DNA from: a virus
Lineage: Duplodnaviria; Caudoviricetes
DNA: 57,985 nt
Reading direction: 5' to 3' (one strand)
Virus record (IMG/VR): IMGVR_UViG_3300012943_000006
Location: 1 to 57,985 of that record
The notes below the pieces were generated by a model. It saw nothing but the letters and a program-made list of their open reading frames with translations, was not told where the DNA came from and searched no databases. Numbering within the stretch: position 1 is the first letter of the stretch; each line of letters starts with the position of its first letter. Positions 5,803 to 53,773 of the stretch are shown piece after piece. A program made the translations under genes and the position numbers.

Positions 5803-6476
5803 GCCAGCGCCCTCGAGCGCTCCTGGAACAGCGCAGCGTCCTCGCGGCTCGTCGCCAGTCCCCGCTTGTACGTGTCGTCCATCTGCCCCTTGCGCCAATA
5901 CGGGTGCAGGTGCTCCACCTTCGAGTCATGGGCGAACGCCCACTGCCCCCGTGCCTGCGCGCAGGTCACAAGCTCCGTGTCACAATACTGATGCGCATAG
6001 CCCTCGTGGTAGACCACACCCGGTCCGTCCCACCCGCCGCCAAACCGTTCTATGTAGTCACGGCGGACAACCGCATGCGTCGAGTGCCCACCCTTCATCA
6101 CCGTTGGGTTGCCCAGGTCGTTTGTCCCGACCACCCCGACCTCCATCATGTCACCCACCTCGAGCGCCGCGCTCGCCCACCCCTCGTGCAGGTGGATGTC
6201 CGAAGCCCCCAGCAGCAGCCACTCTGCGTCGGTCACATCGAATCCCGTGTTGATCTTGCGCGCGTAGTCGCCCGGCTGTGGCTCGTCCGGCAGGACAACG
6301 AACTCCTCACCGGAATGGTGAAGCTCGTTCACAACCGCTCGGTCTGACTCGCTCGCCAGGAACAGCAGACGGTAGTCGATCTCCCGGTCGTAGCTGCTCA
6401 TCACGTCACCGACCAGACGCTCGATCGCAGTTGCCCGGCCCAGCATCGGGATCAGGATGTCGACTGATCTTCCCAT
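5799..6476 (-). CDS. glycosyltransferase family 2
   Basis: ILIPMLGR, YARKIN.G, Y.HQYCDTEL, VEHLHP. Confidence 0.82.
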   Translation of the reverse strand: MGRSVDILIPMLGRATAIERLVGDVMSSYDREIDYRLLFLASESDRAVVNELHHSGEEFVVLPDEPQPGDYARKINTGFDVTDAEWLLLGASDIHLHEGWASAALEVGDMMEVGVVGTNDLGNPTVMKGGHSTHAVVRRDYIERFGGGWDGPGVVYHEGYAHQYCDTELVTCAQARGQWAFAHDSKVEHLHPYWRKGQMDDTYKRGLATSREDAALFQERSRALA

Positions 6477-6736
6477 ATCATCCCCACGGTCTCGTCGATC
6501 CACTGCTGGTCGATGATCCCGGCGTTCAACAGGTCTGTCCACCAACGCCGGTGGCGGTCCATCACGTTCACCGGAGACCGCCTGTCCAGCGCCTGGCACG
6601 GCAGACAGAGCGCCGACTCCGGTTCCCGCCGCGCTTTGCGGATACGCTTGGCCGACGCGTCGAAATAGCAGTTGCAGGACACACACTGGAGCTTCGCTTG
6701 CCGGTACCCGTGGACAGGGACCGTCACGACACTCAT
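6452..6736 (-). CDS. hypothetical Zn-ribbon protein
   Basis: CVSC...CLPC; ATGA coupling to terL. Confidence 0.55.
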   Translation of the reverse strand: MSVVTVPVHGYRQAKLQCVSCNCYFDASAKRIRKARREPESALCLPCQALDRRSPVNVMDRHRRWWTDLLNAGIIDQQWIDETVGMIWEDQSTS

Positions 6737-39012: not shown

Positions 39013-40722
39013 CTAGCAGGTGATGGCTGTCGCCGTCGGACCGGTGGTACCGCTCGGGCAAACGGTGACCGTGGTCAGCAGCGACTCGATCCCGATGAAC
39101 GCGACGGCCTCGAAGGTCTCCGCGAACATCTGGTAGTCGTTGGTGTTGTTGAGGATCGAGTCACGGACGATGCCCAGGTCCAGGGTCCCGCCGTCCAGGA
39201 AGAGGAACGACCCCTCCGGATAGAGGAAGAACTGGACCGTCGTCGGGAACCCGACGATCGCCCCAGAACCCTGAGCGCCGAACACCTGGCCGCCGGTGGT
39301 CGTGCCATCCGGCGTCCACGTGATCTGGATGTTGGCCAGGTCGCGGATCGCCGCAGCGATCCCGTCCCGCGTCTTCTCGAAGCGGTAGAACTGGCTGTTG
39401 ATCAGATCCGCCAGCAGCAGATCTGCCGTCCAGGCCGGGAACACGGCCCGCAGGACCACCCCGTCCGGCAGGCGGTGGCGGGAGCGCATCCCGGCCGCCT
39501 CGCGGAGCAGCGTGTAGAGCACCGTCGAGAACGCCCCGTAGGACGGCGCGACCGTGCCGACCAGCGTGGAGAACGCCGCCATCGCGTCGAGGATCCGGGT
39601 CTCGGCCAGCGCAGCGTGCGCCGACGTTGCCGCGTCCACGAACGCCGCCACCATCTCCGGCCACGCCCTCGAGTTGAGGTTGCCGAACTGGAGGCACCTG
39701 TAGATCATGTCGAGTTCGACCTCGTCGAAGTCGGGGCACTCGATGATCTGGCAGGTCTTCGCCGCCGTGGTCCCACCGGCTGCGTCCTGCGCGGCGGTCT
39801 TGACGCCGACACCCTCGTCGATCTCCGCCAGGGTGATCCCCTGGGTGAACTTCAGGCCGCCGCGCACCGCGTTGAACCCTGCGAGCGCTCCGTCCCGCAC
39901 CGGCCGCGCCGAACTGGACCAGTTACGGATCTCGTAGTAGTTCGCCACCGGGGCGCACAGCCCGCCGGACGCGGTCAACGCGACCGGGTTGATCACGGCG
40001 TCGACCTTCGCCTGGTCGGCCTCCAGGTCGCCACGGAGGATGCGCTCCTCGGGCCAGCTGTCGCCGTAGTTCGCGCTGGCGACAACGACCTTCTCCTGCA
40101 TCCCCTTCGGGGTCGACGTGGCCTGGTTGCGCTTCTTGACGAGCGCGCGAGCGAGAGCCTTGCGGTCCAGCACCGAATCCTCGGCCACGCCCGGGATCCC
40201 CGCCGAAGCGACGAACCCTGGGGTGGTGTCCACGGTGACAACCGGCTCGTGCTCCGTGCCCTGTGACTTCGGGAGCGGCTTCCGGTTGAACCGTGCTGAC
40301 GCCGCGACCGGCTCGAGCACCTCGGCCTCGACGGCCTCCGGCTCTGCCTCTGCCACGACCTCCGGACCGGGCACCGGCTCGGCAGGCTCGCCGTCGCCGT
40401 CGCCGTCGTCCTCGTCGCCCGTGTCGCTCTCGGCCTTCACCGACTCGACACCGGCCTTCTGCTGCAGATCGACCAGCTTCGCGTTGAACTCCTCGTCCAC
40501 CGCGCCCTTGGCCTCGATCTCCTCGCGGATCTTCTCGATGTCCTCGACACCGGCCTGGAACTGCTCCAGCACGTCGGCCATCGAGAGGTCCCCGAGTGTG
40601 TCGGGGTCCCGGTCACCGATCTTCTGCGCTACTGCCTGGTACTGCTCGAGCTTCTCGGTCAGTTCCTCGACAGACAGCGTAGAAAGGTCGATGGGAAGCC
40701 CGGGAAAGAGCTTGTTGTCCAT
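39013..40722 (-). CDS. major capsid protein with N-terminal scaffold-like domain
   Basis: Acidic coiled-coil N-terminus; LTASGGLCAP, RGG..F, K.C..IECP, LDLGIVRDS.LN.TNDY.MF.ETFE. Confidence 0.9.
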   Translation of the reverse strand: MDNKLFPGLPIDLSTLSVEELTEKLEQYQAVAQKIGDRDPDTLGDLSMADVLEQFQAGVEDIEKIREEIEAKGAVDEEFNAKLVDLQQKAGVESVKAESDTGDEDDGDGDGEPAEPVPGPEVVAEAEPEAVEAEVLEPVAASARFNRKPLPKSQGTEHEPVVTVDTTPGFVASAGIPGVAEDSVLDRKALARALVKKRNQATSTPKGMQEKVVVASANYGDSWPEERILRGDLEADQAKVDAVINPVALTASGGLCAPVANYYEIRNWSSSARPVRDGALAGFNAVRGGLKFTQGITLAEIDEGVGVKTAAQDAAGGTTAAKTCQIIECPDFDEVELDMIYRCLQFGNLNSRAWPEMVAAFVDAATSAHAALAETRILDAMAAFSTLVGTVAPSYGAFSTVLYTLLREAAGMRSRHRLPDGVVLRAVFPAWTADLLLADLINSQFYRFEKTRDGIAAAIRDLANIQITWTPDGTTTGGQVFGAQGSGAIVGFPTTVQFFLYPEGSFLFLDGGTLDLGIVRDSILNNTNDYQMFAETFEAVAFIGIESLLTTVTVCPSGTTGPTATAITC

Positions 40723-40727
40723 CTTCA

Positions 40728-40798
40728 CTCCTACGTCGAAGTTACACTTCTCGCCGTAGGGCTACGCCCGGGCTGTCCGCCGCTGCTACGCAACCGGC
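40728..40798 (-). promoter_or_regulatory. structured MCP 5' leader with three GUA-triloop hairpins
   Basis: GTTGC-GTA-GCAGC, GGGC-GTA-GCCC, GAAGT-GTA-ACTTC; CCTACG/CGTAGG can pair over the RBS. Confidence 0.6.
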
Positions 40799-40847: not shown

Positions 40848-41477
40848 TTAGCGTAGGCTCGGATGTGGTACCGCAGCCCGTCGGCTTTTCCCGCCTCGGA
40901 CACCGCCAACCATGACCGACGGCACGTCGTCCACATGGTCGACCAGCGACGGCACCGTCACCCACACCTCCAGCCCCAGCGAATGAGCAGCCTCGCGGAG
41001 GATCGCGTCGTCCGACCTTAGCGCGTTCGCGTTCCATTTCCGTTTGTCCGCCCACTCGACCACCGGGAGGCAGAACTCGCGGGGCCACACCACCGCCACC
41101 GCCGGGATGAAATGGTCTCTCAGGTTGAGCCTGCAGAACGACTCGCCCTCGCGATCCGCTGTGTACATATCGTTGACCGTGTGCCTGGCCTGGCCGGAGA
41201 CGAACAGCACGAGAACCCTGCAGGGGCAGTCGGCCACCTGGGCCGCCACCGCCGCCTCAAGGTTCACCACGGGCAGCGCGTCGTCCTGGATGACCACACG
41301 GTGGGTGCAGTCCTCAGGCGTGCGCAGCAGAGCCTCCCGGTACGTCCGCCACGCCCACGCCGGGCCGGTCGGGTCTGGATCCGCCACGATCTCCGCCTGG
41401 GGGAGACCTAGCCGGGGAAGAAGCTCGGCCCTGGACGGATGGTGCTGGACAGCGAAACTAAGAGATGCGGCGCTCAG
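40848..41477 (-). CDS. glycosyltransferase (GT-A) in the head module
   Basis: HHPSR, VVIQDDA, PAVAVV.P, DD, PSLVDH..PS; start probably CTG overlapping the upstream TGA. Confidence 0.7.
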   Translation of the reverse strand: MSAASLSFAVQHHPSRAELLPRLGLPQAEIVADPDPTGPAWAWRTYREALLRTPEDCTHRVVIQDDALPVVNLEAAVAAQVADCPCRVLVLFVSGQARHTVNDMYTADREGESFCRLNLRDHFIPAVAVVWPREFCLPVVEWADKRKWNANALRSDDAILREAAHSLGLEVWVTVPSLVDHVDDVPSVMVGGVRGGKSRRAAVPHPSLR

Positions 41478-43384
41478 GCCTTCGACCCGGGCTTGACTTT
41501 CACAATATTCCGCTCGGTCGCGACACCGGGGGTGCCATGTGCTCCGCCCATATTGAGCGCCCAACCATGGCTACTCTTTATCCTCGCTCGACCGGTCTTT
41601 TCTTTGAACTCTCCGCCGCCCGCCGGGATCATGATTGTAACTTTGTCATTGAACGTGATGGCATCTATCGCCTCTGCCGCCGCCTCATCTGACAACCCCG
41701 CCAGATTCGCGAACTGCCCGCCCCCCGGTCCTTTCGGCTTACGGGGATGCTTGGCCGAGTCAAACGGGCGGCCAGCGGCCGTGACCCCCATCCGGCGTTG
41801 CTGCTTCGACCCACCCATCGCGTAATCCACCAGACCGTCCACCCCCTTCGCCCTGGCCACAAGCGCCTTCAGCTTCCTGGCCTCGTCCTCCGGCGAACAG
41901 TACACCCCCGCCGCCACCAAACTCATCGTGTGTGGCTCGTCCTCCATGATCAACGACGCGGCCATTGCCCTCGGTACCGGGAACCCCGGGACATTCACCG
42001 CCAGCATCCCCACCATCTCCAGTTGGCCGCCGATTGACCGCCAGTCCCCCGACACCAACGCACCCTTCAACCGCCTCGCCTGCTCCGCCGGGATGTCCGG
42101 CAGCAAAGACCCCGCCAGCACGATCCCGTGCTCGTCCTCGTACGCGCACACATGGGCGGCGCAGGTGCCGGTGTCGTCATAATGGCGGACCGTCTGCTCC
42201 CTTGATGCCGTCAGAGGAGCGTGGCCCGTGTTCATTGTGACACGACCCACATGGACCGGTCCGCCGTCCGTGTCCACCTCCCCCAGGTGGAAATACCGGT
42301 AGCCCGACTGCGACCTCGGCGGGGTCCTACACACCCCGGAGACCCCGGTGTGGCAGGTGCCCCACAGCGCGGCGTGGCCGAACACCCGGCCGTCCGCCGT
42401 GACTGTGATCGGGGTTGGCCCCTCGAGCTTCGGGTTCTCGAACCACGTTTTCGGAGGTGTCAACGGCGCGAGACCGGCAGCGGCAGCGGTAAGTGCGCTT
42501 GCTCCCATGCTGTCCTCCTCGTCCTCCGGGCCATCCGGTCCGATTGTGACAACATGCCCGGTCTCCGGGTCGGTAAGCTGCAACCACTCGCCAGGCTCGG
42601 AGTCGCTAGGCTCGTACCCCTGGTCGAGCCATTCTTTTGCGTGGGACTCGATCGCATCGAAATCTGCTTGGTCGAAATCGCCGGTCGCGTACGAATCGAC
42701 CTGTGTGCCGTCCAGCGTGCCAGCAGCCTCGCTCACCGCATCTTGAATATCCCGGCCGGAAACGTGGGTCACGTTCTGCTCGTTCAACGTGTCCACTACC
42801 TGCTCCTGCATAGCCCCCTGGTCCATCCCCTCCGGGCCAGACGCCTCGGCCAGGTCGATCTCCCCAATCGTCTCCCCGTCAACCTGCACCTCCGCAGTGT
42901 CACGGGAGACCGGGACAACCTGGATCGCTCGGAACTGTCCCCCACCCTTCGATCCTTCTGGATTGCGAGGGTGCTTCGACTCGTCGAACGTCGCCGCTGT
43001 CACGCTCCTAGCCTCGGACAGCGCGATCGCCAACGCCTGCTTCCGGTCGGTCACCTTCGCGCCGGTCGACGACTTCAAAGTCCCGGCCTTGAACTCGGCC
43101 ATCACCTTGTCGATCTTCCGCTTCCTGGCGTTTTTCGACGAAGCAACCAGGCTCGCGGTGACGCCCCAACCCTCCGGCAGTGCATCCACCGCGTCGAGCG
43201 CCTTCGCCCGCTTGATGATGTGGCGTTTCGCCGCTGCCTTGTCCCCCGCCCGGCCGAACGCCATGATCGCGTTCTTCAAGTCCGACCTGTTGCGGATCGG
43301 GAACCCCCCGCCCTTCATCGCGACACCGGACCTGGCCAGGCGTTCGCGCTGGTCGGCGGAGAACTGAGCGGCGGTCATGCTCAC
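41474..43384 (-). CDS. multidomain head maturation protein (DUF6582 + DUF6496 + HPR motifs + putative capsid maturation protease domain)
   Basis: FPIRN..DL.NAI.AFGRA; KVMAEFKAGTLKSS.G.KV..RKQA.AIALSEAR; PP..WF.NP.L.GPTP.TVT.DGRVFGH.A.WG.CH, SGDWR, VNVPGFP; TGG-TACACT promoter 7 nt upstream of GTG. Confidence 0.75.
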   Translation of the reverse strand: MSMTAAQFSADQRERLARSGVAMKGGGFPIRNRSDLKNAIMAFGRAGDKAAAKRHIIKRAKALDAVDALPEGWGVTASLVASSKNARKRKIDKVMAEFKAGTLKSSTGAKVTDRKQALAIALSEARSVTAATFDESKHPRNPEGSKGGGQFRAIQVVPVSRDTAEVQVDGETIGEIDLAEASGPEGMDQGAMQEQVVDTLNEQNVTHVSGRDIQDAVSEAAGTLDGTQVDSYATGDFDQADFDAIESHAKEWLDQGYEPSDSEPGEWLQLTDPETGHVVTIGPDGPEDEEDSMGASALTAAAAGLAPLTPPKTWFENPKLEGPTPITVTADGRVFGHAALWGTCHTGVSGVCRTPPRSQSGYRYFHLGEVDTDGGPVHVGRVTMNTGHAPLTASREQTVRHYDDTGTCAAHVCAYEDEHGIVLAGSLLPDIPAEQARRLKGALVSGDWRSIGGQLEMVGMLAVNVPGFPVPRAMAASLIMEDEPHTMSLVAAGVYCSPEDEARKLKALVARAKGVDGLVDYAMGGSKQQRRMGVTAAGRPFDSAKHPRKPKGPGGGQFANLAGLSDEAAAEAIDAITFNDKVTIMIPAGGGEFKEKTGRARIKSSHGWALNMGGAHGTPGVATERNIVKVKPGSKA

Positions 43385-43418
43385 GGACGGGAGTGTACCA
43401 GCGGGACCAGCCATGTCG

Positions 43419-43634
43419 CTAGTCTACCACCGGTTCGGCCCAGACCCGGCTCCCCGCCAGCGCCTCCGGCAGCGCCGCCAGATAACGCTCGGTCGCCTCC
43501 GGCGGCACCAGGCCCTCGCTGTCGACCACGGTGACGCCCTGCAACAGGTCTAGCACCCACTTGTCCCCGTGGAACGAACCGTCGTTGTCGAACCTGGCGA
43601 TAGGTTCCCCGTCCCGTACGATCGCGACAGCCAT
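43419..43634 (-). CDS. small protein coupled to the kinase gene (candidate immunity/partner)
   Basis: 71 aa, TGATG coupling, RBS GGAGGAGG. Confidence 0.6.
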   Translation of the reverse strand: MAVAIVRDGEPIARFDNDGSFHGDKWVLDLLQGVTVVDSEGLVPPEATERYLAALPEALAGSRVWAEPVVD

Positions 43635-44833
43635 CAGTCCTCCTCCTGCCCCAGGGTCACCGACGGGTGCCAGCCATAGCCCTGGACCATCTCGTCGATC
43701 ACGCCCGCCTTCCACTCGTCCGTTGTCGGGAACTTGCCTGCACCGTTGTTCATGTACTCGAGCCTGCGCCACATCGCCCTGCGCTCGGCCTCGGTCAGGT
43801 ATGGCCGCAGCCGGGTGTCGATCCTCTCCCAGTCCTCGAGCATCCCGCCGATCGCGTCCGACTGCTTCGCGTCCGGGAAATCGAACTCGGTCTCCCCGAA
43901 GCGCTGCTTGTTGTCCAGAACGTGGAACCGGCCGAACTGGTCTTCGTTCTGCGACGGGAACGCCAGACCCTGGTCGATCAACCAGATCTCCCCCTCGGGG
44001 GCCTCTATCACGTTGCCCAAGTGCCGGTCGGTGTTGCCGATCACGTAGTCGTACAGCGTGATCGCTCGTGCCTCCTCGTCCGTGATGAAATCGATGCCGT
44101 CGGCCTCATCGCCCTCGACCTTGGTCGACAAGGCCACATGACCCAGCCCCGCGATGTTCGCCTCTACCACCGGCGCGACCCGCAGGTCCGGCGACAACCC
44201 CGGGCTGGCGTTCTTGATCTCCTCAGCCATCACCTGCGCCGCCAGTTCTCGCTGGATATCCCGCCCCGGCTCCACAAAGTCGCGCAGCCGCGCGCCCTCC
44301 TCGTTGATCGGCTTGGCAACATACTCCACGCCGTCGATAGTCGCCCAATAAACCTTATTCGAGGTCGAGCCGCCCCTGTCCTCCACATCGGACGCGACCA
44401 CCGGCTCCAGTGGAGCATCCACCCCATAGACAATCCCCGGGACCTCCACCTGCAGATCCACCCCCGGCGGCAGCTTCATCTCCTCACCGGTTTCGACGTT
44501 CTCCACCGTGGTGCCCTCGTCGCCGGTCGGGTGCTTTATCCGGAACCACTGGATCGAGCCTGGCCCCCCAGGGTCTTGGCCCTGGTACTTGAACACCTCC
44601 CCCGCTGCCAGGTCCTCCAGCTTGTAGATCCCTGCCTCGCGGTCCCCCACGTCGAGCGTCGCGAACCTGCCTCCTTCGCTCGAGCCGGACGGGTGCCGAG
44701 GGTGTTTGCTCTCGTCGAACCCCGCCGCCACGATCGCGCGCTCATCGCACCGACCGGTCACATCCAACGGCCAGTCACACGTCTCTTTCGGCCAGTCCGC
44801 GTTCACCAGCTGCTCGTCCGGATTGAAGCTCAC
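43634..44833 (-). CDS. HPR-motif protein with a HipA/PI3-PI4-kinase-like domain
   Basis: YVAKP, RELAA, LYDYVIGNTDRHLGN, WLIDQGLAFP. Confidence 0.85.
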   Translation of the reverse strand: MSFNPDEQLVNADWPKETCDWPLDVTGRCDERAIVAAGFDESKHPRHPSGSSEGGRFATLDVGDREAGIYKLEDLAAGEVFKYQGQDPGGPGSIQWFRIKHPTGDEGTTVENVETGEEMKLPPGVDLQVEVPGIVYGVDAPLEPVVASDVEDRGGSTSNKVYWATIDGVEYVAKPINEEGARLRDFVEPGRDIQRELAAQVMAEEIKNASPGLSPDLRVAPVVEANIAGLGHVALSTKVEGDEADGIDFITDEEARAITLYDYVIGNTDRHLGNVIEAPEGEIWLIDQGLAFPSQNEDQFGRFHVLDNKQRFGETEFDFPDAKQSDAIGGMLEDWERIDTRLRPYLTEAERRAMWRRLEYMNNGAGKFPTTDEWKAGVIDEMVQGYGWHPSVTLGQEED

Positions 44834-46878
44834 GGTTTCGCCTTTGTCCACTGTAGATGGAACTCCTGGTCCGCCGGTGGCGACCAGTCCCCATCGAACC
44901 ACGACCACACCATAGCGTCCATGTCCGTCCCACCCAACACCACCATCTCGTCCTCGTCAAGACACCCGAACCCTGTAAACGGGGTTGACAACACCCGGCG
45001 GACATCGATCTTCGTGCCAGCCAAAGAATGCACCCGCGCGTTCCCGTTGGCGAAACTGTTAGCAGAGTTGAAGCTGTGCGCCCACGAAGACAACGGGTTC
45101 TGATGGACAGACAGGATGTCCATCCCCGGGTAGTCACCCTGCTTGGGCGGGGTCCCCCTCCGGTCGTCTTTCTCCCAAAACTCGCTACGTGAGATGAACT
45201 GGTCTGCCCCGCGCTGCAAGCTCTCCGTGATCGCCCCAGGAGGACCTGCCGGGCCGCTCGGATCTCCGAACTTCATCCCCCGGTAGGCATAGACATGGGT
45301 GATCCCCGCGTCCTTGAACATCTGCTGCGTCAGGTCGTACTGCGCACGTACGAACTTCCTGGCCCCGGCCATCTGTTGCGGAGTGAAAAGCTCCCGGCTT
45401 GTGGCCTCCGGCCCTTGCGCCTGCCACTCCTCCAAGGTCATGCCCTGCGCATCAGCATAGTGCTGCTGTGTCTCTTCCCACGCCTTGTGGATGAACTCGT
45501 TCGGCTCTAGACCGAACTCCTGCTCCGCCGCCAGCTGGAACTGCAACGCGATCGCATCGCTGTCACCAGAAGATCTAGCCCAGTTCGCGACCGCTAACGC
45601 CGCCGTCTGTTTCTCCACCGTGTCCGCCGTGGCCATCGACCCACCCGGCTCGAACTCCTGCTTCCAATCCTCATACGGGTCGAGCGCCCGGACCAAGCTC
45701 TTGAAATCAGCGTCCCCGTTGAGCTTCGCCGCGAGCTTGTCCTGAACCCCGATCTTCGCCCGCACACTTTCGTCGGCCCGTATCCCTCTGTCGTTCGCGG
45801 ACGCCAAGTCCCGGTATTTCTGCTCCTCCCACAGCTGCTCCATCTCCGCCTGGTGAGACAACACCGTCGACCAGTCCTCCGGCTCGGACTGGAAAAGCTC
45901 CTCGCCCTTCGGCGCGAACTTCCCTCCCTCGCTCGAGCCTTCTGGATGGCGGGGATGCTTCGATTCATCCCACCCTGCGGACACCATCACCGCCGGGTCA
46001 TCCGTATAGACCAGCGTGCACCGGCAGTTGATCACCTCGTTGTCAGGACCGGCAGGATCTCCAGGGTACATCAGCTGCGCCCCCCCCACGGTGAACGGCG
46101 CGTCAAGCTTGACAACCTGGTCCTCCGCCTCCACATGGGTCGGACGGACCTTCTCGTCGTCCGCGTTCTTCCACCGTTTGAACACCGGCGCGCTCTCCGC
46201 CAGCACCGACGCCGCAGCGAAGCTCCCGCCGTTTTTCATCGCCACCAGGTCCGTCCTGGCGAGCATCGTCGCCTGCCACGGCTTCGCGTCCACCAACTGC
46301 TCGTAGATCTGGCTCGCGGTCTGCGGCACGTCCCACCCCTGGGTGATCGAGTCGAGGATGATGTTCGCCACGATGTCCCGGACACCAGCGGTGATCCTCT
46401 CCGCCTGGACCCCCGCCTGCGCCGCAACCAGGTCGCGGACGTACGGGGAGACAGCGGCGAACGAGATCCCTAGCTCGAGAGCCATCTGCGCCGCCGCCTC
46501 GTTCGCCAGCTTCTTCCTCGCGGCGGCCAGAGCTTTGTCCGTAGAATCCTGCAAGGTCATCGCGTCCAGGATCTCGCTCAACTGCGGGTTGCGGTTCTGC
46601 TCCGCCCCCGCCGCCGTTGTCACCCGTGACGCCGCCTGGTAGTTCTTGCTGCACCGGATGGCGTTCCGTTGCAGAACCTGCTCGTACTTCCGGATTAGCG
46701 GCTCCTCGCCCTCCATCGGCACCGACGCCGCCATCACCGGCGGGACCTGCCAGTAGCCCCATTTCAAGATCGCGTCGACAGGGACCGTCGGCCCTATGCC
46801 GTTCCCGGACTCGATGTGGCCCATCCCGTCGCCGTCGTCGACCAGACGCGCCCCGCCCCTGACCGCCAGCACACTCAC
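44830..46878 (-). CDS. MuF (Phage_Mu_F) head protein fused to a C-terminal ADP-ribosyltransferase-like domain
   Basis: LARTD, KRW...D.KVRPTH, F.VGG..L.YPGDP.GP..EVINCRC; then YRG, PLSSW, EDEMVV (R-S-E). Confidence 0.85.
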   Translation of the reverse strand: MSVLAVRGGARLVDDGDGMGHIESGNGIGPTVPVDAILKWGYWQVPPVMAASVPMEGEEPLIRKYEQVLQRNAIRCSKNYQAASRVTTAAGAEQNRNPQLSEILDAMTLQDSTDKALAAARKKLANEAAAQMALELGISFAAVSPYVRDLVAAQAGVQAERITAGVRDIVANIILDSITQGWDVPQTASQIYEQLVDAKPWQATMLARTDLVAMKNGGSFAAASVLAESAPVFKRWKNADDEKVRPTHVEAEDQVVKLDAPFTVGGAQLMYPGDPAGPDNEVINCRCTLVYTDDPAVMVSAGWDESKHPRHPEGSSEGGKFAPKGEELFQSEPEDWSTVLSHQAEMEQLWEEQKYRDLASANDRGIRADESVRAKIGVQDKLAAKLNGDADFKSLVRALDPYEDWKQEFEPGGSMATADTVEKQTAALAVANWARSSGDSDAIALQFQLAAEQEFGLEPNEFIHKAWEETQQHYADAQGMTLEEWQAQGPEATSRELFTPQQMAGARKFVRAQYDLTQQMFKDAGITHVYAYRGMKFGDPSGPAGPPGAITESLQRGADQFISRSEFWEKDDRRGTPPKQGDYPGMDILSVHQNPLSSWAHSFNSANSFANGNARVHSLAGTKIDVRRVLSTPFTGFGCLDEDEMVVLGGTDMDAMVWSWFDGDWSPPADQEFHLQWTKAKP

Positions 46879-48701
46879 GCCCACTCCCCGCTGTAATCCC
46901 CGGCGGGCTGATAGTACGAGATCTCGATCCCACGGGCTGCGAGCTGGTCAAGCACCCTTTCCATGGTAGCACGGTCGGACACCAACGGTAAACCGGTCAA
47001 CGGGCTTTCCAGGTCCCAGTCCTGCTCGTCCAGGACCTCCACCCTGGCGATGTCCGCCGGTGTGAGCTTCCCGTAGATCTGTGCCTCCACATACGGGATC
47101 GACGTACGCTCGAACGCGAGCGCGTCGTGCCACATCTCACCGTCAGCATAGAACTCCTCGCCGCCGTAGCGCAGGTTGGTCGCCATCTCGCCGCTGGTGG
47201 AATCCAACGGCTCGTTCCAAGCTCCGGCCGCCACCTCCTCGACCTGCGCCAGATTCGCGGACAGATAAGACGGGTCGCGCACCGGGGACGGGATCACATC
47301 ACTCCCCATCAGCAGGCTGTCGTTCACCGTGAACGTCGCCCGGTCCTTCACATTGTCCTTGAAGACAACCTTGATCGGCCCGTAGTCAGTCACCCCGTCG
47401 GTGTCCGGTCCCAGATAGCCGTATTTCGGCAGGTCCGCCGGGTTGGTCGTGTCCAGCCCGAACATCCGGGCCTCCCCCTCGACAGACCGGCCCATCCCCC
47501 GCGACCCCTGCGCCTGGTGCTGGTTGAGAAACTCGCCGTCCTTCAGCGCCTCCTCGAGCGCGGACTCCGGCACCCGCATCTGCAGATCCGCGCTGTCCAG
47601 GAAATCTTTCAGATCGGCCTCCATCTGCTGCTCCACAAGCTCCGGCACCGCGTTCTTCGCCCGTAGCTCCTCCTCCAGACCGGGCCGTCCCAAACCCAGG
47701 GCCGGACCTTCGTCCACGCCGCCCGCCTCGACGAACTCGCCGCCTGCCTCGCCCCCGGGATCTCTGGGATGCTTCGATTCGTCCCACCCGGCCGCACGCA
47801 GGACCTCCGGGTCGACCATCTGCTCCGGCACCCTGGCAACCCACAGGTTCGGACCTGCCGACTCCAGGATGGTCCCCGTGGGCAACACGATCTCCGACTC
47901 CCCCGGGTCCCAGCCCACGTGGGCACCCGCCGGGACCAACACCCGGTGGACATGCTCGGTCTTCCCCGTCCCGGCTCGGTCCGCATAGTTGGTCGCCACG
48001 TACTTGGAGAATGACGTCGCGATCGGCCGGGACGATGGCTCGTCTGACTGGCCGTACGCGCCGCGCCACACCGCGATATCCGTGTCCAACGGGGGATGGA
48101 CGTAGATCGCGCGGTCGACCTCGAGCGCGTCCTCACCCCAGGTCCAGCCCTTCGCCCAGTCCGGGGGCAGCGTCGCGTTGCCGCCGTCGCTCCACTGCTT
48201 GTCCGCCCAAAACCGCCACGGGTCGCTATAGAAGTCGTTCTCCCCGCCCTCCGACCACGCTTCCTTCAACATGCTGGCCTCTTCCTGCTGCAGCCGGTCG
48301 GCCTGCGCCCATCTTTGTTCCGTCGTGGCCTCCGGCTCACCCCTCTCTGACAGCAGCGTCCGGGCCATCGCGGCGGCGTCGTCGTCGTGGACCCCCACCT
48401 CACGCAGGAAATCTGAGCTTTCGGTCTCGAGCGTCGAGCGCCACTGTCCGCCGCGCTCCGTCCCACCTGGCTGTCTCGGGTGTTTGGATTCGTCGAAACC
48501 TGCAGCAGTGACCGCGTCCACCTCCGCCCAGTCTGACAACGGCGGCGTGCCCGACCACGGGTCGTCAGGCTCGAGTTCGGTCATCCACTCGTCGTACTCC
48601 GGGTCAGACGTGTCGATCGGGGCCATGTAGTCACCGATCACACCCGGGATCTCCGCCCTCCGGGGCACCCACAGCACGCCATCGACAAGCTTCGGGTTCA
48701 C
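46875..48701 (-). CDS. HPR-motif polyprotein: ADP-ribosyltransferase + DUF3626-like domain
   Basis: VWRG, ATS, VLVPAG, ESEIVLP; F.NQH..GSRG, PKYGYL, YG....K..V.DRATFT.NDS, YVEAQIYG.L. Confidence 0.8.
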   Translation of the reverse strand: MNPKLVDGVLWVPRRAEIPGVIGDYMAPIDTSDPEYDEWMTELEPDDPWSGTPPLSDWAEVDAVTAAGFDESKHPRQPGGTERGGQWRSTLETESSDFLREVGVHDDDAAAMARTLLSERGEPEATTEQRWAQADRLQQEEASMLKEAWSEGGENDFYSDPWRFWADKQWSDGGNATLPPDWAKGWTWGEDALEVDRAIYVHPPLDTDIAVWRGAYGQSDEPSSRPIATSFSKYVATNYADRAGTGKTEHVHRVLVPAGAHVGWDPGESEIVLPTGTILESAGPNLWVARVPEQMVDPEVLRAAGWDESKHPRDPGGEAGGEFVEAGGVDEGPALGLGRPGLEEELRAKNAVPELVEQQMEADLKDFLDSADLQMRVPESALEEALKDGEFLNQHQAQGSRGMGRSVEGEARMFGLDTTNPADLPKYGYLGPDTDGVTDYGPIKVVFKDNVKDRATFTVNDSLLMGSDVIPSPVRDPSYLSANLAQVEEVAAGAWNEPLDSTSGEMATNLRYGGEEFYADGEMWHDALAFERTSIPYVEAQIYGKLTPADIARVEVLDEQDWDLESPLTGLPLVSDRATMERVLDQLAARGIEISYYQPAGDYSGEWA

Positions 48702-51700
48702 CTTGGCTCCAGTAGGTTGATCCCCAACACTGGGTCGAGCACCCACCTGAACCCCTCCGGAGCGACCGCCCCAGTGCCCGGGCTGATCCTCTCGACGTCG
48801 ACCTCCGCCAGACGGGCCATCGTGTCGTCAACCCACTGTCGGTACTCTCGGCCCTCCGGGGTGTTCCACGTGTCCGCGCTCTTGAACGGCCCGCTATGTT
48901 CGTAATACTGCTTCCTGCCCAGACGCACGTCCCGCTTCCTGCGCACATGGTCCGCCACCGACTCTGCCCAAAGCTCCTGCCGACCGGCGATCCCGTTCGG
49001 CCCGTCCTGCACGTAGTAACGCCTGAGCTTCGAGTAGAACTGCTGGTGATACCTGTACAGCCGGTCGCTGTTGTCTATCGTGTAGACATCACCGATCGCG
49101 TGGCCAACCTCGTGAGCCGCCAGAGCCTGCGACCCGTACCGAGGGTCGGTGCTGATGATCGTTGTCCCGCTTGACGGGGAGTTGAACCCGGCGACCTGTT
49201 TCATCGTCCTGCGGTCCCGGTTTCTGGCCTTCTCGTCCCGGATGTGCCACATCTCGTCCAGGTCGGTACTCTCGCCGGTGCCGAAATAGAGCTTCTGCCC
49301 CGACGCTGCCAGCCCCCTGTGGATCTCGTCCGGGATGTCCCCCGCCTCCCCGACAAGCTCTTGTGTGCGGCCGTAGTGGAACCCCGTCACACCCATGTTG
49401 TCGCCGTAGATCTCTTTCAGCCGGTCGTGCGCCATCTGGTCTGTCCTGGGTGGCTCGCGGTACGCCAGCCCCAGCGCGTTCTCCCGCTTGTACAGATGCT
49501 CGATCCACCCGCGCTCGGTTAGGATCCGCCTCGCCTCCGCTGGGTCGAACCGGTGCAACAACGTCGACTCCACGTTGCGGGTTACTCTGACGTTCTGCTC
49601 TTGCCTGACCTTCAGCTGCAGATCTCCCGGCATCATCGGGTCGTTCTTCGCGATCTTCCAGATCTCGCTGTCGGGCCAGTTGTTACGTGCCTGCTCGTCC
49701 GCGTTCCGTTCCTTCCACCATCGCGTGACTTCGCTCTGTGTCTGTGGTGTCACGGTGTCAGACGACGTCGATACCACCTGCTGCTTCGGGTAGACGTCGA
49801 GTGCTGAGTTCACCAGGTCGCTCTTCGCTTTCGCGTCGAACCCCGGCTTGAATTTCCCGTTTTCAGACAGGTAAACATCCGGGATGCCCTGGGAGCGCGG
49901 GTCGATCGTGACCTTCTTCGCCTTCTGCTCGAAAAGCTCCGGGTATTGCTCTCGCGCGTAGTCCTCGCCCATCGACTTGATGATCGCCTGTTTGTCCAGC
50001 TGGTCGTACACCCGGCGGCCCTCGTTACGCGCCTGCGACAACGACCGGCCGATCTCCTTCGCATACTGGCCTGAGAGCAACCCGCCCGAAGACCATACTC
50101 GTTCACCGAACTCACCGTTGGGATCCTGGACCCACTCGCCGTCGGACAGCTGCTTGCGAAGCTCGCCCTGCAGGAACGCAACCTCCGCGTCGGTCCAGTT
50201 GCCCCAGTTGTCCAAGACCGCCTGCCGCGTCGGGTCTACGATCGCGACCGTTGACCCGTCCTCCATTACGAACCGCTCGCCGGTGCTCTCCGCCCAGCCA
50301 ACCCACTCGTCCTTCAAGTTCGTGGACACCCCCACCTTGTACTTCGTCCGCTCCCCCGCGTGGGCGTAATACTCAGCCATCGCCTCGGCCTGCTTCTCGT
50401 TCTGGAACGCCCTGCGTACGCGAGCTTTCTCCATCCAGTCCGTGGAGAGCGCGTCCCCGGCGGTGTCTTTCGGCCGGAACTGCCCGCCGTCCGACTGTCC
50501 ACGCGCGTAACGAGGGTGTTCGCTCTCGTCCCAGCCGCTGGCGGTCTCCGCGTCCAAGCTCGTCGACCCCGCGTACCGCCAGCCGGTGTTCTTCGACAGA
50601 CGCCCGCCCTTCAACCCCGGCCGCCAATACACATGAGCTTTGTTCGTGTCACGGTCGACAACAACGATCGACAGCGCCGGTTTCACCCCCAGCCTTTTCG
50701 CCTCCGCCGCCTTTTGCGCGATCTCGTACTTTTTCGGCGTGGCCTTGAACGACGTCGACTCCGTGGACACCGCCTTCACCTCGTAGCCGTAGCCACCGAC
50801 GACAACGTCGATCGGGGACTGCTCGCCCTTCCCCTCCGGGTGCATGATCTTGCCGCCGGTAAGCTCGGTGAACTCCCTCTCCCCCACACGGCCCAGCGTG
50901 GTGTTCGTCCCGTACGCCCGGTCGCTCGAGTAGCCGCCTGCTTTGCGCTCGCCAGCCTGGCCCTTCGGCTCCGGCGGGTCCTGCCATTCCAGCGTCGGCA
51001 GCCCTTCGTCCTGTTTGCCGGTGAACTGCCCGCCGGTCGCCGTGTCCTTAGGGTCGCGCGGATGGTCAGACTCCACCCACCCCGCCGCGACCAGGGCCGC
51101 CGTCGCCGCCCGCTTGTCCCGCGCCAACGCGAACATGTCATCCGCCATCAACCGCACCTCTTCAGGCGTCAAGCTGAACCTACCCGGACCGCCGCGAGTC
51201 GGCACCCCCAAACGCGCATAAAGGTCTCCTGCCCGTCTGTTCCCCGCAGACCACGCCGCGCCTTTCCCCCTGGCAGCGGCCTCGTCCAAGAACGCCGCGA
51301 ACAACGGCATCCCCGCCCCCTTGGTCGCCCCGGCCGCCCCACCGTACAGAGGCAAGGAAGACCCGGGCATGTCAGCGAAATCCATCACCCCGACCACCTG
51401 GGCGTTCTCGTCCCGGACAACAATAATATGGGCCTGTGTCTCTCCGTACGACTCTTCTATGTCGTCTTCGTTCACATCAGGCTGTGTGAACATCTCATCT
51501 ATCGCGCCGCCCTCCAGCGCGGCAAACGCATGCGCCATCGCGCTCGAAAGGTCGCGGCCGGTGCCACGATCACCGATCGGCGGGCCGCCCCTCGACAACG
51601 GGATGTCCGTCTTGCCCTTCGGCCACAGCCCCGCGTCGTGAGCCTCGACCAGCTGGTCTCGCAAAACCCTCAGCGACTCGGTGGTCGGGACTATCGTCTC

Positions 51701-51811
51701 TGTCTGGAACTTCGACCTGAACCGGCCGCCCTCAGGGACACCCCCCTGGAAACGCGGGTGCTTGCTCTCGTCGAAGCCCGCGCCGACCCACGCCTCCTCC
51801 AGGAGGGACAC
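48698..51811 (-). CDS. HPR-motif polyprotein: GNAT + PD-(D/E)XK nuclease + unknown + Zn metallopeptidase
   Basis: KGAG.PLF...N..A..LY.RLG; G.VGE...IDV...YEVK; AHEVGH...ELWAES. Confidence 0.8.
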   Translation of the reverse strand: MSLLEEAWVGAGFDESKHPRFQGGVPEGGRFRSKFQTETIVPTTESLRVLRDQLVEAHDAGLWPKGKTDIPLSRGGPPIGDRGTGRDLSSAMAHAFAALEGGAIDEMFTQPDVNEDDIEESYGETQAHIIVVRDENAQVVGVMDFADMPGSSLPLYGGAAGATKGAGMPLFAAFLDEAAARGKGAAWSAGNRRAGDLYARLGVPTRGGPGRFSLTPEEVRLMADDMFALARDKRAATAALVAAGWVESDHPRDPKDTATGGQFTGKQDEGLPTLEWQDPPEPKGQAGERKAGGYSSDRAYGTNTTLGRVGEREFTELTGGKIMHPEGKGEQSPIDVVVGGYGYEVKAVSTESTSFKATPKKYEIAQKAAEAKRLGVKPALSIVVVDRDTNKAHVYWRPGLKGGRLSKNTGWRYAGSTSLDAETASGWDESEHPRYARGQSDGGQFRPKDTAGDALSTDWMEKARVRRAFQNEKQAEAMAEYYAHAGERTKYKVGVSTNLKDEWVGWAESTGERFVMEDGSTVAIVDPTRQAVLDNWGNWTDAEVAFLQGELRKQLSDGEWVQDPNGEFGERVWSSGGLLSGQYAKEIGRSLSQARNEGRRVYDQLDKQAIIKSMGEDYAREQYPELFEQKAKKVTIDPRSQGIPDVYLSENGKFKPGFDAKAKSDLVNSALDVYPKQQVVSTSSDTVTPQTQSEVTRWWKERNADEQARNNWPDSEIWKIAKNDPMMPGDLQLKVRQEQNVRVTRNVESTLLHRFDPAEARRILTERGWIEHLYKRENALGLAYREPPRTDQMAHDRLKEIYGDNMGVTGFHYGRTQELVGEAGDIPDEIHRGLAASGQKLYFGTGESTDLDEMWHIRDEKARNRDRRTMKQVAGFNSPSSGTTIISTDPRYGSQALAAHEVGHAIGDVYTIDNSDRLYRYHQQFYSKLRRYYVQDGPNGIAGRQELWAESVADHVRRKRDVRLGRKQYYEHSGPFKSADTWNTPEGREYRQWVDDTMARLAEVDVERISPGTGAVAPEGFRWVLDPVLGINLLEPR

Positions 51812-51814
51812 CGT

Positions 51815-53773
51815 CTAGACCACCCGGTCGATGTAACTGACCAGCTGGTCCGGCAGGACAGGCTCGTCGTCGAACAAAGTCCTGGCGGCAAGGTCCATCA
51901 CCAGACCGCCGATCTTTCCCGACTCCGCCCCGCCCACCTGCATGTAGTTTTGCAGGACATGTTCGAACGCCTCGGTGGAGCCGCCGACAAGACCGGTGGC
52001 TGTCAAGCCAAGCTCCCGTACCCGCTCGGCCCCCAAGGTCCTCGCCAGGTCACGGTTCGGGATGTCGGCGTAGTCGCCGTTCACCCTCGAGCGGAGCTTC
52101 GACCCTGCCAACTCGCGCGCCCGGACCGTTGCCATCGCTGACGCCGCGCACACCGCCGCCACCACGTCCCTCTGCGCCTCGATCTCCGCGCTCGCAGCGA
52201 CCGACGCCGCGTCCTCCGTGTTCTTGTCCTCGTCGACGTTCTCGCCCGGTTTGGTCTCCGGCGGACCCTGCACGTCGGGAGCATCGCCAGGCGGCTGGGT
52301 CTCCGGGGTGGCTGCCTGCTCCGGCCGGATGCTCTCCGGCAGCATCTGCGCGTCCTTGAACTGCATCGCCAGCCAGATCTTCCCTTCATCCGACTTCAGG
52401 TCCAGCTGGTCCGTGTCCTTGAATCCCGACGCTTCCCGCAGTGCCTCCCAGTTGATCGCCCCCTCCCGCTGCAGGTCTTTCGCGTCCTTCGACTTGTCCG
52501 GGTGGTTGACCAGCTCGGCCGCGTCAAACCCGACAACAAGGTCCTCCCACCCCTCGATGTCCTCCATCTCCGCCGCAGGCCGCAGGTAGCTCGAGGTCAG
52601 GTCAGAGCACAGCTGCTGAATCACCGGCTTGATATGCGACTTGAAGCTCGACTCGTCGATCTGCCAGGACCCCCAGTGGTTCACATCGCCCATCCCCAGC
52701 AGGATCTCCTGCGGCATATCCAACCCGGTGGCGATCCGGCGGATGCACTCCTGCCTCAACCCCTCTTCCGGGTAGGTCTCTTTCGGGTCGTGAATCTTGA
52801 TCAGCTTCGCCGCGTTCTCCATCATCGCCGCCGGGATCTTCGCGATGATCGGCACCACCGCCAGCGCCGTCCCCGGGTCTTTGATCGGGGTGACCATCCC
52901 CTTCTGCAACCTGGCCATGAACGGCTCGGCCTCGGTGCTCTCCGGCCCGGCCAGCTTGTCCGGCGGCCCGAAATCAAGCTCCTGCGCCAGCAGCAGGATC
53001 CCCGCCCCCGCCAGCCTGGACTTAGCCCGGGCACGGACCGCCAACTGTAGGAGCAGAAGCTCCTCGAACAGATCTAGCACCGCGCGGGTCGGCGCGTCCG
53101 CCCACCACGAGTATTCCGGGTCGCGGTTCCACAGACGCCACACCGCAGCGGTGTTCTTCTCCATCGTCGACAGCTTGACCGTGTCGCCCTGCTCCACAGC
53201 CTCGGTGGGAAGCTCGTCGTCCGGCATCTCTTCGATCTCTTCCGGGTCCAAACCCGGGGCGCGCACCCGGACGTAACGTCCTGGCCTGGTCGCACTGCCC
53301 GACGTCTCCGCGTAGACACGAAGCTCTTTCGGGGACAGGAACTCCCACCGTTCCCCGCCGCGCTCCTGGGTGCAGATCAGGAAACCCTCACCGATCAGGA
53401 ACCTCAAGCGGCCGTACGACGCAAACAGCTGGGACGTCCCCCCGCCCGGGTCCTGGATCCGGTTCATCAACTCTGCCGCCGGGTCTTTTGCGTCGAGTTC
53501 TTTCACCTCGCCGGAGTCGTCTTTCCGCGCGGCGAACACCCGGACCATCGACAACGACCGGGCGTAATACTGCGCGGCGTACCAGCATTCCGGCACCGTG
53601 TGGTAGTACGTGAACACCATGTCCTGCCACGGCTGGGCCAACCTGCGGAATCTCGACCCGTCGTTCCTGACCTCGGAGATCCGGACCGCTGACGCGACCA
53701 GCGCCGGGCTGCGAGCCACGACGCTTTCGTCAGACGGGACAACAACCAGGCTCTTGTGACTCTTAGGAGCCAA
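51815..53773 (-). CDS. portal protein
   Basis: WQ....YY..VPE..YA, GEGFL, KSRLAGAGIL, RRIATGLDMPQEILLG..VNHW.SWQI; resembles mycobacteriophage cluster-B-type portals. Confidence 0.88.
   Translation of the reverse strand: MAPKSHKSLVVVPSDESVVARSPALVASAVRISEVRNDGSRFRRLAQPWQDMVFTYYHTVPECWYAAQYYARSLSMVRVFAARKDDSGEVKELDAKDPAAELMNRIQDPGGGTSQLFASYGRLRFLIGEGFLICTQERGGERWEFLSPKELRVYAETSGSATRPGRYVRVRAPGLDPEEIEEMPDDELPTEAVEQGDTVKLSTMEKNTAAVWRLWNRDPEYSWWADAPTRAVLDLFEELLLLQLAVRARAKSRLAGAGILLLAQELDFGPPDKLAGPESTEAEPFMARLQKGMVTPIKDPGTALAVVPIIAKIPAAMMENAAKLIKIHDPKETYPEEGLRQECIRRIATGLDMPQEILLGMGDVNHWGSWQIDESSFKSHIKPVIQQLCSDLTSSYLRPAAEMEDIEGWEDLVVGFDAAELVNHPDKSKDAKDLQREGAINWEALREASGFKDTDQLDLKSDEGKIWLAMQFKDAQMLPESIRPEQAATPETQPPGDAPDVQGPPETKPGENVDEDKNTEDAASVAASAEIEAQRDVVAAVCAASAMATVRARELAGSKLRSRVNGDYADIPNRDLARTLGAERVRELGLTATGLVGGSTEAFEHVLQNYMQVGGAESGKIGGLVMDLAARTLFDDEPVLPDQLVSYIDRVV

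Follow-up and report, generated by a model that had tools for sequence, protein, structure and literature searches.

An HPR peptide motif repeated before effector-type modules in the head operon of a tailed virus: a possible handling signal of virion cargo

The window analysed here is the whole of virus record IMGVR_UViG_3300012943_000006 (Duplodnaviria; Caudoviricetes), a complete record of 57,985 bases with direct terminal repeats and a G+C content of about 65%. Its head operon lies on the minus strand and encodes, in order, the portal protein, proteins of 1037 and 623 amino acids (aa), a 684-aa MuF protein, a 424-aa protein, a 646-aa maturation-protease protein, a glucosyltransferase-like open reading frame (ORF), and the major head protein. 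The subject of this analysis is a short peptide, here termed the HPR motif, that is repeated within the five genes following the portal gene. A regular-expression scan of all six frames (HPR.{5,12}GG.[FW], the upstream part of each match being [FWY][DVN][ES][AS]?[KED]) gave exactly nine matches, all on the minus strand and all inside these five adjacent ORFs: three in the ORF at 48698-51811, two in that at 46875-48746, one each in those at 44830-46884 and 43634-44908, and two in that at 41474-43414. A profile built from the nine copies and searched against the whole record returned the same nine only (E 3e-20 to 6.5e-15), and 2000 shuffles of the proteome (a crude set of 68 ORFs, 16,566 aa) gave a mean of 0.009 matches per shuffle as compared with the nine observed. 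A preliminary description of this DNA had placed nine copies in five genes between the portal and major capsid protein genes, and the spans located by regular expression and profile fall within those that it gave. The copies are as follows, with the predicted local distance difference test score (pLDDT) of AlphaFold2 (AF2) models where one applies.

51719..51775, minus strand: motif copy 1, FDESKHPRFQGGVPEGGRF, 12 aa from the start codon of the 1037-aa protein
51023..51079, minus strand: motif copy 2, WVESDHPRDPKDTATGGQF, in the 1037-aa protein
50477..50533, minus strand: motif copy 3, WDESEHPRYARGQSDGGQF, in the 1037-aa protein
48441..48497, minus strand: motif copy 4, FDESKHPRQPGGTERGGQW, in the 623-aa protein; pLDDT <50 in the AF2 model
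47733..47786, minus strand: motif copy 5, WDESKHPRDPGGEAGGEF, in the 623-aa protein; pLDDT <50 in the AF2 model
45916..45972, minus strand: motif copy 6, WDESKHPRHPEGSSEGGKF, in the MuF protein; mean pLDDT about 56-57
44663..44719, minus strand: motif copy 7, FDESKHPRHPSGSSEGGRF, in the 424-aa protein
42932..42988, minus strand: motif copy 8, FDESKHPRNPEGSKGGGQF, in the 646-aa maturation-protease protein
41711..41764, minus strand: motif copy 9, FDSAKHPRKPKGPGGGQF, in the 646-aa maturation-protease protein

Copy 6 begins about 10 aa past the CRC of the MuF domain in the numbering of the called gene. The proposal that the peptide and not the DNA is conserved is borne out by the mean column identity of the nine DNA copies, which is 69% with no long identical run, and by the free use of synonymous codons: serine is encoded by AGC, TCC, TCG, or TCT, arginine by CGT, CGC, CGG, or AGA, and histidine by CAC or CAT, and the proline codons are also free. 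Because the codons differ between copies, selection acts on the peptide and not on the DNA.

The motif extends far beyond the window. Searched against 1.84 billion cluster representatives, the profile of the nine copies matches 1070 protein clusters at E ≤1e-3, 164 at 1e-10, and 18 at 1e-30. In the best 150 carriers, where copies of at least 15 bits were counted, 2 proteins have one copy, 70 have two, 45 have three, 18 have four, 10 have five, 3 have six, and single proteins have seven and nine; the spacing between copies (283 gaps) has a median of 221 aa and a 5th percentile of 105 aa and is therefore domain-sized. A pattern scan of IMG/VR matched 209 stretches, 42 of which were confirmed, in 32 loci; these hold 59 distinct copies of at least 20 bits, mostly several in consecutive genes of the same strand. 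Locus L003 has nine copies over four ORFs, and there are 14 motif matches in record G001. In cellular genome contigs, an over-narrow pattern (six closer copies) gave four loci, one of them (L044) a weak, non-motif match. The consensus of 407 copies is h-[AT]-A-A-[AG]-[WF]-D-E-S-K-H-P-R-x-P-x-G-[ST]-x-x-G-G-x-F-A-P-K-G, in which the Pro is conserved in 97%, the Arg in 96%, the Gly in 96%, and the GG pair in 85 and 78%, the His being the anchor by which the copies were collected. The first aromatic position is Trp, Phe, or Tyr in 94% of the copies, and the positions next to it are Asp in 76% and Glu in 86%. The motif is nearly invariant over contigs of metagenome-assembled genomes (MAGs) that are labelled Actinomycetes, Brocadiia, and Saprospiraceae, these being unchecked metagenome-bin labels.

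The preliminary description knew of no earlier account of such a tag, and no record of one was found in Pfam, NCBIfam, the Protein Data Bank (PDB), or the literature. None of the nine copies matches any Pfam family, even at E ≤10, and no NCBIfam match lies on the motif; the 34-residue motif region is without a match among PDB chains, a single match to a lectin repeat (E 0.44) being due to chance, and literature searches with motif strings and with "HPR motif" returned unrelated papers only. In tblastn searches, motif stretches of 34, 57, and 41 residues gave none, two chance-level, and ten weak matches, respectively, in 50,697 phage records, and the 34-residue query had no match in 72,556 plasmids; these negatives are weak because the queries are short and a low-complexity filter was applied. 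A tblastn match in Gordonia phage DatBoi was discarded because it is antisense to the annotated gene. The motif is a real, widespread, and self-contained element that defines a large family.

The position of the motif within its carriers is asymmetric. The first copy is within 40 aa of the N terminus in 52 of the 150 carriers, whereas the last copy is within 40 aa of the C terminus in none, the minimum distance being 55 aa and only 8 lying within 100. It follows that, on gene splitting, the motif stays with the downstream part, in keeping with the earlier description of a peptide-level module located N-terminal to variable enzyme domains. Modules have been reshuffled among relatives without loss of the motif; an iterated profile of the first module of the window found 15-17 further copies of it in other carriers, two of them within one protein, and the relative at locus L005 has a different module order. 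In an AF2 model of the 623-aa protein, made with alignments, both copies are in stretches with pLDDT <50 (residues 47-95 and 301-332 of P0026, the gene call in the public collection) between confident domains. When the whole MuF protein is modelled by AF2, the motif adopts no secondary structure and no docking on MuF is seen, a result that applies to docking in the same chain and not in trans. Disorder of this type marks the motif as a short linear element within a linker, and such elements act through binding or cleavage; it may be described as a leader of about 20 residues, predicted to be intrinsically disordered, that prefixes each effector module of the head-encoded, MuF-linked polyvalent proteins of this lineage. 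The shuffling of modules between relatives and the location of the motif in flexible linkers could also be accommodated by a sequence that nothing reads, either a passive spacer or a recombination joint that facilitates the exchange of domains. Such a role is very improbable in view of the 96-100% conservation of the His (the collection anchor), Pro, Arg, and Gly over 407 copies and of the variation in codons and in DNA noted above, which places selection on the peptide.

The genes of the head operon and their principal features are the following.

51815..53773, minus strand: portal protein, 652 aa (phrog_776, E 1.7e-103)
48698..51811, minus strand: polyvalent protein, 1037 aa, with motif copies at aa 13-31, 245-263, and 427-445; its segments are GNAT-like (a lead), PD-(D/E)XK-like (a lead), an uncharacterised region, and a C-terminal HEVGH zincin-like peptidase
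48932..49432, minus strand: zincin-like metallopeptidase region with HEVGH, aa 794-960 of the 1037-aa protein
46875..48746, minus strand: 623-aa protein (the public gene call, P0026, begins at residue 16), in the order small N-terminal beta unit, motif, C3/iota/VIP2-like ADP-ribosyltransferase (ART) fold, motif, SopF-like ART fold
44830..46884, minus strand: MuF protein, 684 aa (PF04233, 36.5 bits; cut-off 29.6), in the order N-terminal beta unit, helical region and Phage_Mu_F (aa 172-291, nucleotides 46012-46371), motif, C-terminal domain of unconfirmed identity
43634..44908, minus strand: 424-aa protein, with a conserved leader, motif, and PI3/4-kinase/HipA-like domain
41474..43414, minus strand: maturation-protease protein, 646 aa (phrog_21470, E 1.5e-69; phrog_18402, E 2.5e-50), in the order DUF6496 (aa 94-137; 42 bits, cut-off 24), motif, acidic region, protease (about aa 291-529, nucleotides 41828-42544), motif, C-terminal 78 aa
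40198..40215, minus strand: FVASAG, aa 172-177 of the capsid protein, a candidate maturation cleavage site
39013..40728, minus strand: major capsid protein with an N-terminal delta-like region (phrog_777, E 5.8e-85)

The domains assigned by the preliminary description to these proteins fared unequally on closer comparison. In the 623-aa protein, the R-S-E-type ART and the SopF/DUF3626-like domain are both supported by fold: Foldseek relates the former to ARTs of the C3/iota/VIP2 type (E about 5e-4) and the latter to SopF (E 5.7e-7), which we take to belong to DUF3626. PF12294 is present in four carriers. The MuF call stands, its score being above the cut-off. The 424-aa protein reaches only 23.2 bits for PI3_PI4_kinase (cut-off 27.1), with further matches to HipA_2 and to TIGR03843 (E 7e-10), but its homologue P0033 reaches 33.5 bits for PI3_PI4_kinase and matches the kinase domain of the window at E 1.3e-104, and the HipA/PI3K-like assignment is supported through this homologue. 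For the zinc peptidase, the HEVGH string is present and a phrog_4415 peptidase match is found (E 2.4e-9), but the ATLF match is weak (E 7.4e-4; 19.7 bits against a cut-off of 27.4). The GNAT and PD-(D/E)XK assignments are leads only, with atlas scores of 0.85, under the 0.9 line; an iterated profile of the GNAT-like segment gave no link to Pfam GNAT, and that of the PD-(D/E)XK-like segment took up the motif itself and was useless. The second ART proposed to follow MuF could not be confirmed: aa 325-684 have no match by sequence to Pfam, NCBIfam, or PDB entries, a Foldseek comparison of the AF2 model with the PDB gave nothing at E ≤0.001, and pLDDT is <50 over most of aa 529-682; strings resembling R, S-x-S, and E-x-E are visible only by eye. 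Sequence comparison of three window segments with PDB chains gave nothing meaningful. The small N-terminal beta units of the 623-aa and MuF proteins have 40-45 residues in three strands and a short helix, with block-mean pLDDT of about 77-91, and both precede a cleavage-like site; a likeness between the two was considered, and BLASTP found nothing.

Domains in the wider set of carriers were surveyed by a Pfam scan of 105 of the 150 proteins (the 34 best and 71 of the remainder of ≤1100 aa). Phage_Mu_F is present in 29 of these and ART families (ADPrib_exo_Tox, ART-PolyVal, DRAT, PARP, and ART) in 17; Acb1 is found in 6, Zeta_toxin in 5, and 2H phosphoesterases in 5, and ParBc_2, DUF3626, GNAT, InPase, Fic, topoisomerase IB, ATLF, PI3/4-kinase, inteins, and LPD1 in smaller numbers. 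One carrier is fused to Portal_Mu and two to Peptidase_S78_2, 43 have no Pfam match at all, and a conjugation-specific Pfam domain was found in none. The frequency of MuF and the shared vocabulary of effector domains uphold the view of the carriers as MuF-linked, phage-type polyvalent proteins, and this vocabulary is one that suits effectors of the virion. The anti-CBASS enzyme Acb1 occurs as motif-flanked modules of head-linked polyvalent proteins, in P0003, P0015, P0023, P0024, P0084, and P0098 (E 1.7e-27 to 7.9e-41), which suggests, at the level of sequence, that an enzyme degrading cyclic nucleotides may be delivered ready-made. Intein/Hint matches, all below Pfam cut-offs, are present in P0003, P0005, P0015, and P0023 and stand right behind MuF in three of the four. 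DUF6496 directly precedes a motif copy in the window (43004-43135, minus strand) and in P0007, P0048, P0070, and P0105, suggesting that DUF6496 and the motif form a fixed unit.

The genomic context of the motif is also of the phage-head type. A PHROGs scan of 94 ORFs at 13 diverse viral loci located head-type genes (portal, MuF-type, protease, scaffold, capsid, or terminase) within or beside the motif genes at 11; at one locus, L024, the context is uninformative. MuF was detected in four of five carrier records, twice below the cut-off. In record G001, a second motif cluster occupies the gene for the maturation protease together with the adjoining gene, next to a capsid gene of phrog_777. The two strong prophage-like matches in cellular contigs for which there is context are both of head/phage type, L042 having a terminase, a ParB-methylase, and a portal that runs directly into the motif and L043 an integrase and a polyvalent protein of the portal-fusion type. 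The motif is therefore mostly found in head modules, as the preliminary description would have it.

Cultured viruses carry a short form of the motif, WN[PE]ALHPR[GD]xxG[KR][FW], in a single copy near the start of each of several giant proteins. Gordonia phage Phendrix gp66 (1479 aa), which came to notice through a weak tblastn match, is encoded directly after the portal gene and has EALTAAFKIRRGDWNEALHPRGADGRW in its N-terminal region; a search with its first 47 residues detected this feature in 11 Gordonia phage records and also led to the next two proteins. Streptomyces phage Gilgamesh gp48 (4624 aa), encoded two genes after a portal-MuF fusion gene, has WNPALHPRDSKGRF at aa 32; apart from the short HPR motif, this protein (L058, 2979-16853) has no Pfam or PHROG match. 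In the haloarchaeal virus HHTV-1, gp13 (1100 aa), encoded two genes before a gpF-like gene, has WNPALHPRGPDGKF at aa 133. A strict DNA pattern for the short form gave 10 stretches in IMG/VR. The profile of the long form scores the short form at only 4 bits, so that the 1070 clusters cover the long form alone. A single N-terminal copy on a protein of 4624 aa would suit an exit signal, in which the disordered leader engages the portal or tail channel, or the DNA end, and the module is threaded out at ejection; the N-terminal location and disorder of the leader are compatible with this, as is the immediate succession of the portal gene and the first motif gene in the window, L003, and Phendrix. 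Such a function is nevertheless improbable: a residue count indicates that the motif peptide is near neutral, which makes DNA binding unlikely, and, if the polyprotein were not cleaved, the retention of internal copies would have no explanation.

The residues that precede the motif are of a different character from the motif itself. In the window lineage, h-[VT]-A-[AS]-G stands directly before each copy, whereas in other lineages the corresponding residues are not the same, K-A and K-G being examples. The pattern [LIVMFW][VT][AS][AS][GAST] occurs 13 times in the 4925 aa of eight head proteins versus 4 times in the 11,641 aa of the other 60 ORFs; after removal of six motif-tied occurrences the numbers are 7 versus 4 (Fisher p 0.02), a difference that is only a hint, and a weak point in the case for the handling signal considered below, because the pattern was derived from this same window and the gene set is crude. 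Several of the free occurrences are at domain borders: upstream of DUF6496, on both sides of the protease domain, and at FVASAG in the capsid protein. The last of these resembles the residues that precede each motif, comes after an N-terminal region that is variable and acidic, and is retained in 78 aligned relatives as ALVASAGIPG. The leader of the 424-aa protein (DEQLxNADWxKxTCDWPL...; window 44720-44850) recurs in L005 at 3042-3599, where it runs directly into a domain that contains two H-x-T-L strings and by eye is 2H phosphoesterase-like. This homologue keeps a TAAA pre-motif and has no HPR motif, showing that the two elements are separable. We infer that the pre-motif may be a site for the maturation protease.

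The explanation that we tentatively prefer, as quite possible if not yet probable, is that the HPR motif is a handling signal of virion cargo, coupled to a protease site; packaging, a reader, the position of cleavage, and injection are all elements that we infer. The motif would be recognised inside the procapsid by some conserved constituent of the portal vertex, be it the portal, MuF, or the two together, and each module would thereby be taken into the head or held in it. The h-[VT]-A-[AS]-G sequence would then be cut by the maturation protease, splitting the polyproteins into single modules, each beginning with the motif ([FW]DESKHPR), and the freed modules would later exit with the DNA. 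The maturation protease must enter the procapsid, and the presence of two copies in the maturation protease of the window and one in MuF was counted in favour of the cargo interpretation. The suggestion of the preliminary description that the motif is a capsid address tag, which would bind the portal, the capsid interior, or DNA and load the attached domain, is no more than plausible.

Several observations weigh against a handling signal of this kind. One copy (L011, E 3.6e-10), at the N terminus of a 530-aa ORF (5875-7464 of record G005, about 36.2 kb), lies between DNA ligase and helicase genes and not among head genes, and is the one clear exception to the head context. Carriers differ in their portal (phrog_776, 12, 2662, and 21), capsid (phrog_777, 617, and 10), and protease families, whereas the motif is almost invariant, which argues against a simple lineage-specific docking site on a capsid protein and is difficult to square with docking on any head protein that evolves fast. 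The motif is present in only 27 of 103 MuF homologues of the window protein and absent from many long MuF fusions, so that MuF-linked cargo does not in general require it. In the portal-motif-cargo fusions of L023, L042, and P0114, the cargo is already attached, so that release is needed but targeting is not. The motif is missing from the cultured phages that are closest in their protease (Microbacterium phages Antares and Terij, Curtobacterium phage Kithara, and phage DSL-LC01, with 50-54% identity over the domain) and also from Gordonia phage Jambalaya. Judged by its nearest cultured relatives, the window phage probably infects an actinobacterium. No reader or partner of the motif was found, and searches of the literature returned no virion proteomics for any carrier and nothing usable on the virion proteins of HHTV-1.

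The near invariance of the motif across head-protein families and MAG labels points to a very conserved partner, and such a partner could be on the host side. After injection the motif might dock on a universal host factor (a chaperone, prolyl isomerase, ribosome, or RNA polymerase) or set the time of decay through the N-end rule; the Trp, Phe, or Tyr that follows the candidate cleavage point in 94% of the 407 copies and the two conserved prolines in a disordered stretch are consistent with roles of this type. However, the protease, which acts inside the procapsid, itself has two copies, docking on a host factor leaves the restriction to head modules without explanation, and the host labels are unchecked bin labels. 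Acidic residues right after the N-terminal residue weaken recognition by ClpS, and the frequencies of Asp and Glu after the aromatic residue are thus unfavourable for an N-end-rule signal. A host-side role is, on balance, distinctly unlikely.

It should also be considered whether the motif is purely a processing junction, a cleavage recognition element, like those of viral polyproteins, for the prohead protease, the zincin peptidase of the polyvalent protein, or MuF itself, with no role in targeting. The motif is found at domain borders with domain-sized spacing, portal-motif-cargo and MuF-motif-cargo fusions need to be cleaved if the cargo is to leave, and the cleavage-like pre-motif adjoins every copy and recurs at borders in the capsid protein and the protease; the main text of Iyer et al. 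2017 (PMC5512222) also proposes that peptidase domains process polyvalent proteins into units. We regard this as unlikely nonetheless, for a mere separator should fall to either side when genes are split, and the counts are 0 of 150 at the C terminus as compared with 52 of 150 at the N terminus. In cultured phages, each giant protein has a single copy at the N-terminal end with no other between the parts that follow, and the candidate cleavage sites in the capsid protein and protease are without HPR, so that the HPR part is not needed for a site of this type. In addition, protease families differ between carriers, and an ATLF-type peptidase was detected, at the thresholds used, in only 1 of the 105 scanned carriers (P0021), together with the weak match in the window.

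Returning to the handling signal, the short form allows a broader proposal, which is rather doubtful: the HPR peptide would be a portable and module-autonomous cargo signal of tailed viruses, with the long form before each module and the short form on giant proteins, read at the portal vertex, with the cargo cut free and delivered with the DNA, and common to phages of several bacterial phyla and a haloarchaeal virus. If the motif is a cargo signal, virion-delivered proteins would be predictable from sequence, including Acb1, ADP-ribosyltransferases, kinases, and nucleases that act before phage gene expression, and the signal would be a tool for loading chosen foreign proteins into phage capsids. 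If the broader proposal is true, pre-packaged anti-defence enzymes, such as the Acb1 modules, would be a general strategy of these phages. Even if the motif is only a cleavage junction, it gives a processing map of these polyproteins.

Effectors packaged in the head are already known, as are MuF toxins and polyvalent proteins, and the motif is a new element within that kind of system. In T4, a short N-terminal peptide, the capsid targeting sequence, brings unrelated proteins into the prohead in a manner coupled to cleavage by the prohead protease, and T4 Alt is a packaged ART. We know of no sequence likeness between the T4 capsid targeting sequence and the motif; the T4 signal is removed, whereas in the proposed model the motif is kept on the module, and the T4 signal is limited to one phage group, whereas the motif is present across lineages with different head proteins. 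The cargo-loading peptides of encapsulins are also short and conserved and load diverse enzymes into a shell of the HK97 fold; most of them lie at the C terminus, they differ from one shell family to another, and their binding site has been shown. The motif, in contrast, is N-terminal to its module.

Phage-type polyvalent proteins were described by Iyer, Burroughs, Anand, de Souza, and Aravind 2017 (PMC5512222), whose main text lists ART, zincin peptidase, 2H, InPase, ParB-like, zeta-toxin kinase, and MuF domains encoded beside virion genes, predicts that the proteins are packaged and injected, and describes the packaging of T4 Alt. The five genes of the window and the 105 scanned carriers share the domain vocabulary given in that text. 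The window is also similar in having polypeptides with two or more effector-type domains (two ART folds in the 623-aa protein; three motif-delimited segments and a zincin-like peptidase region in the 1037-aa protein), and its five genes, with MuF and the maturation protease among them, lie between those of the portal and the major head protein. It differs in that the main text of PMC5512222 mentions no conserved inter-domain peptide, and in that the cargo of the window, as compared with the proteins described there, is distributed over five adjacent genes with the same leader on every module. The window resembles the MuF polymorphic toxins, as presented in the main text of Jamet et al. 2017 (PMC5576092), in having an N-terminal MuF domain, followed by a C-terminal domain (here of unconfirmed identity), and a location near the portal gene; that text makes no mention of a linker, conserved motif, junction, or cleavage. 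A further difference from these toxins of temperate phages is that the motif marks only a part, 27 of 103, of the MuF homologues of the window protein. In the Dar system of phage P1, according to PMC12810830, anti-defence proteins are inside the head and are released at infection, with 55 DarA-Hdf pairs on the inner capsid surface; these are folded proteins at fixed capsid sites, as distinct from a short repeated peptide, and no DarA or Hdf relative was seen here. The question on which the motif bears is how unrelated head-packaged modules are recognised, loaded, separated, and sent out, since it is the only element common to all the modules, and the occurrence of the short form in cultured phages makes the question directly testable.

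At the upstream end of the cargo genes, a single in-frame codon separates the portal TAG stop from the GTG with which the first cargo gene begins (51809-51817, minus strand), and in the relative L003 (3019-3024) the portal TGA stop stands directly before GTG and the motif. Stop-codon read-through joining the portal to the cargo was considered and dropped, the frame match across loci being about that expected by chance: an apparent six of six in-frame cases was an artefact of picking frames that open close to the motif, and, of about 20 distinct motif ORFs in which a copy is found early, only 4-5 are preceded in frame by a long ORF. At the downstream end, the scan of six frames placed no HPR motif in the major capsid protein. 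The glucosyltransferase-like ORF between the protease and capsid genes (40848-41564, minus strand; phrog_854, E 4.8e-13) is likewise motif-free and has the same place in the relatives L003 and L005, with 38-49% identity.

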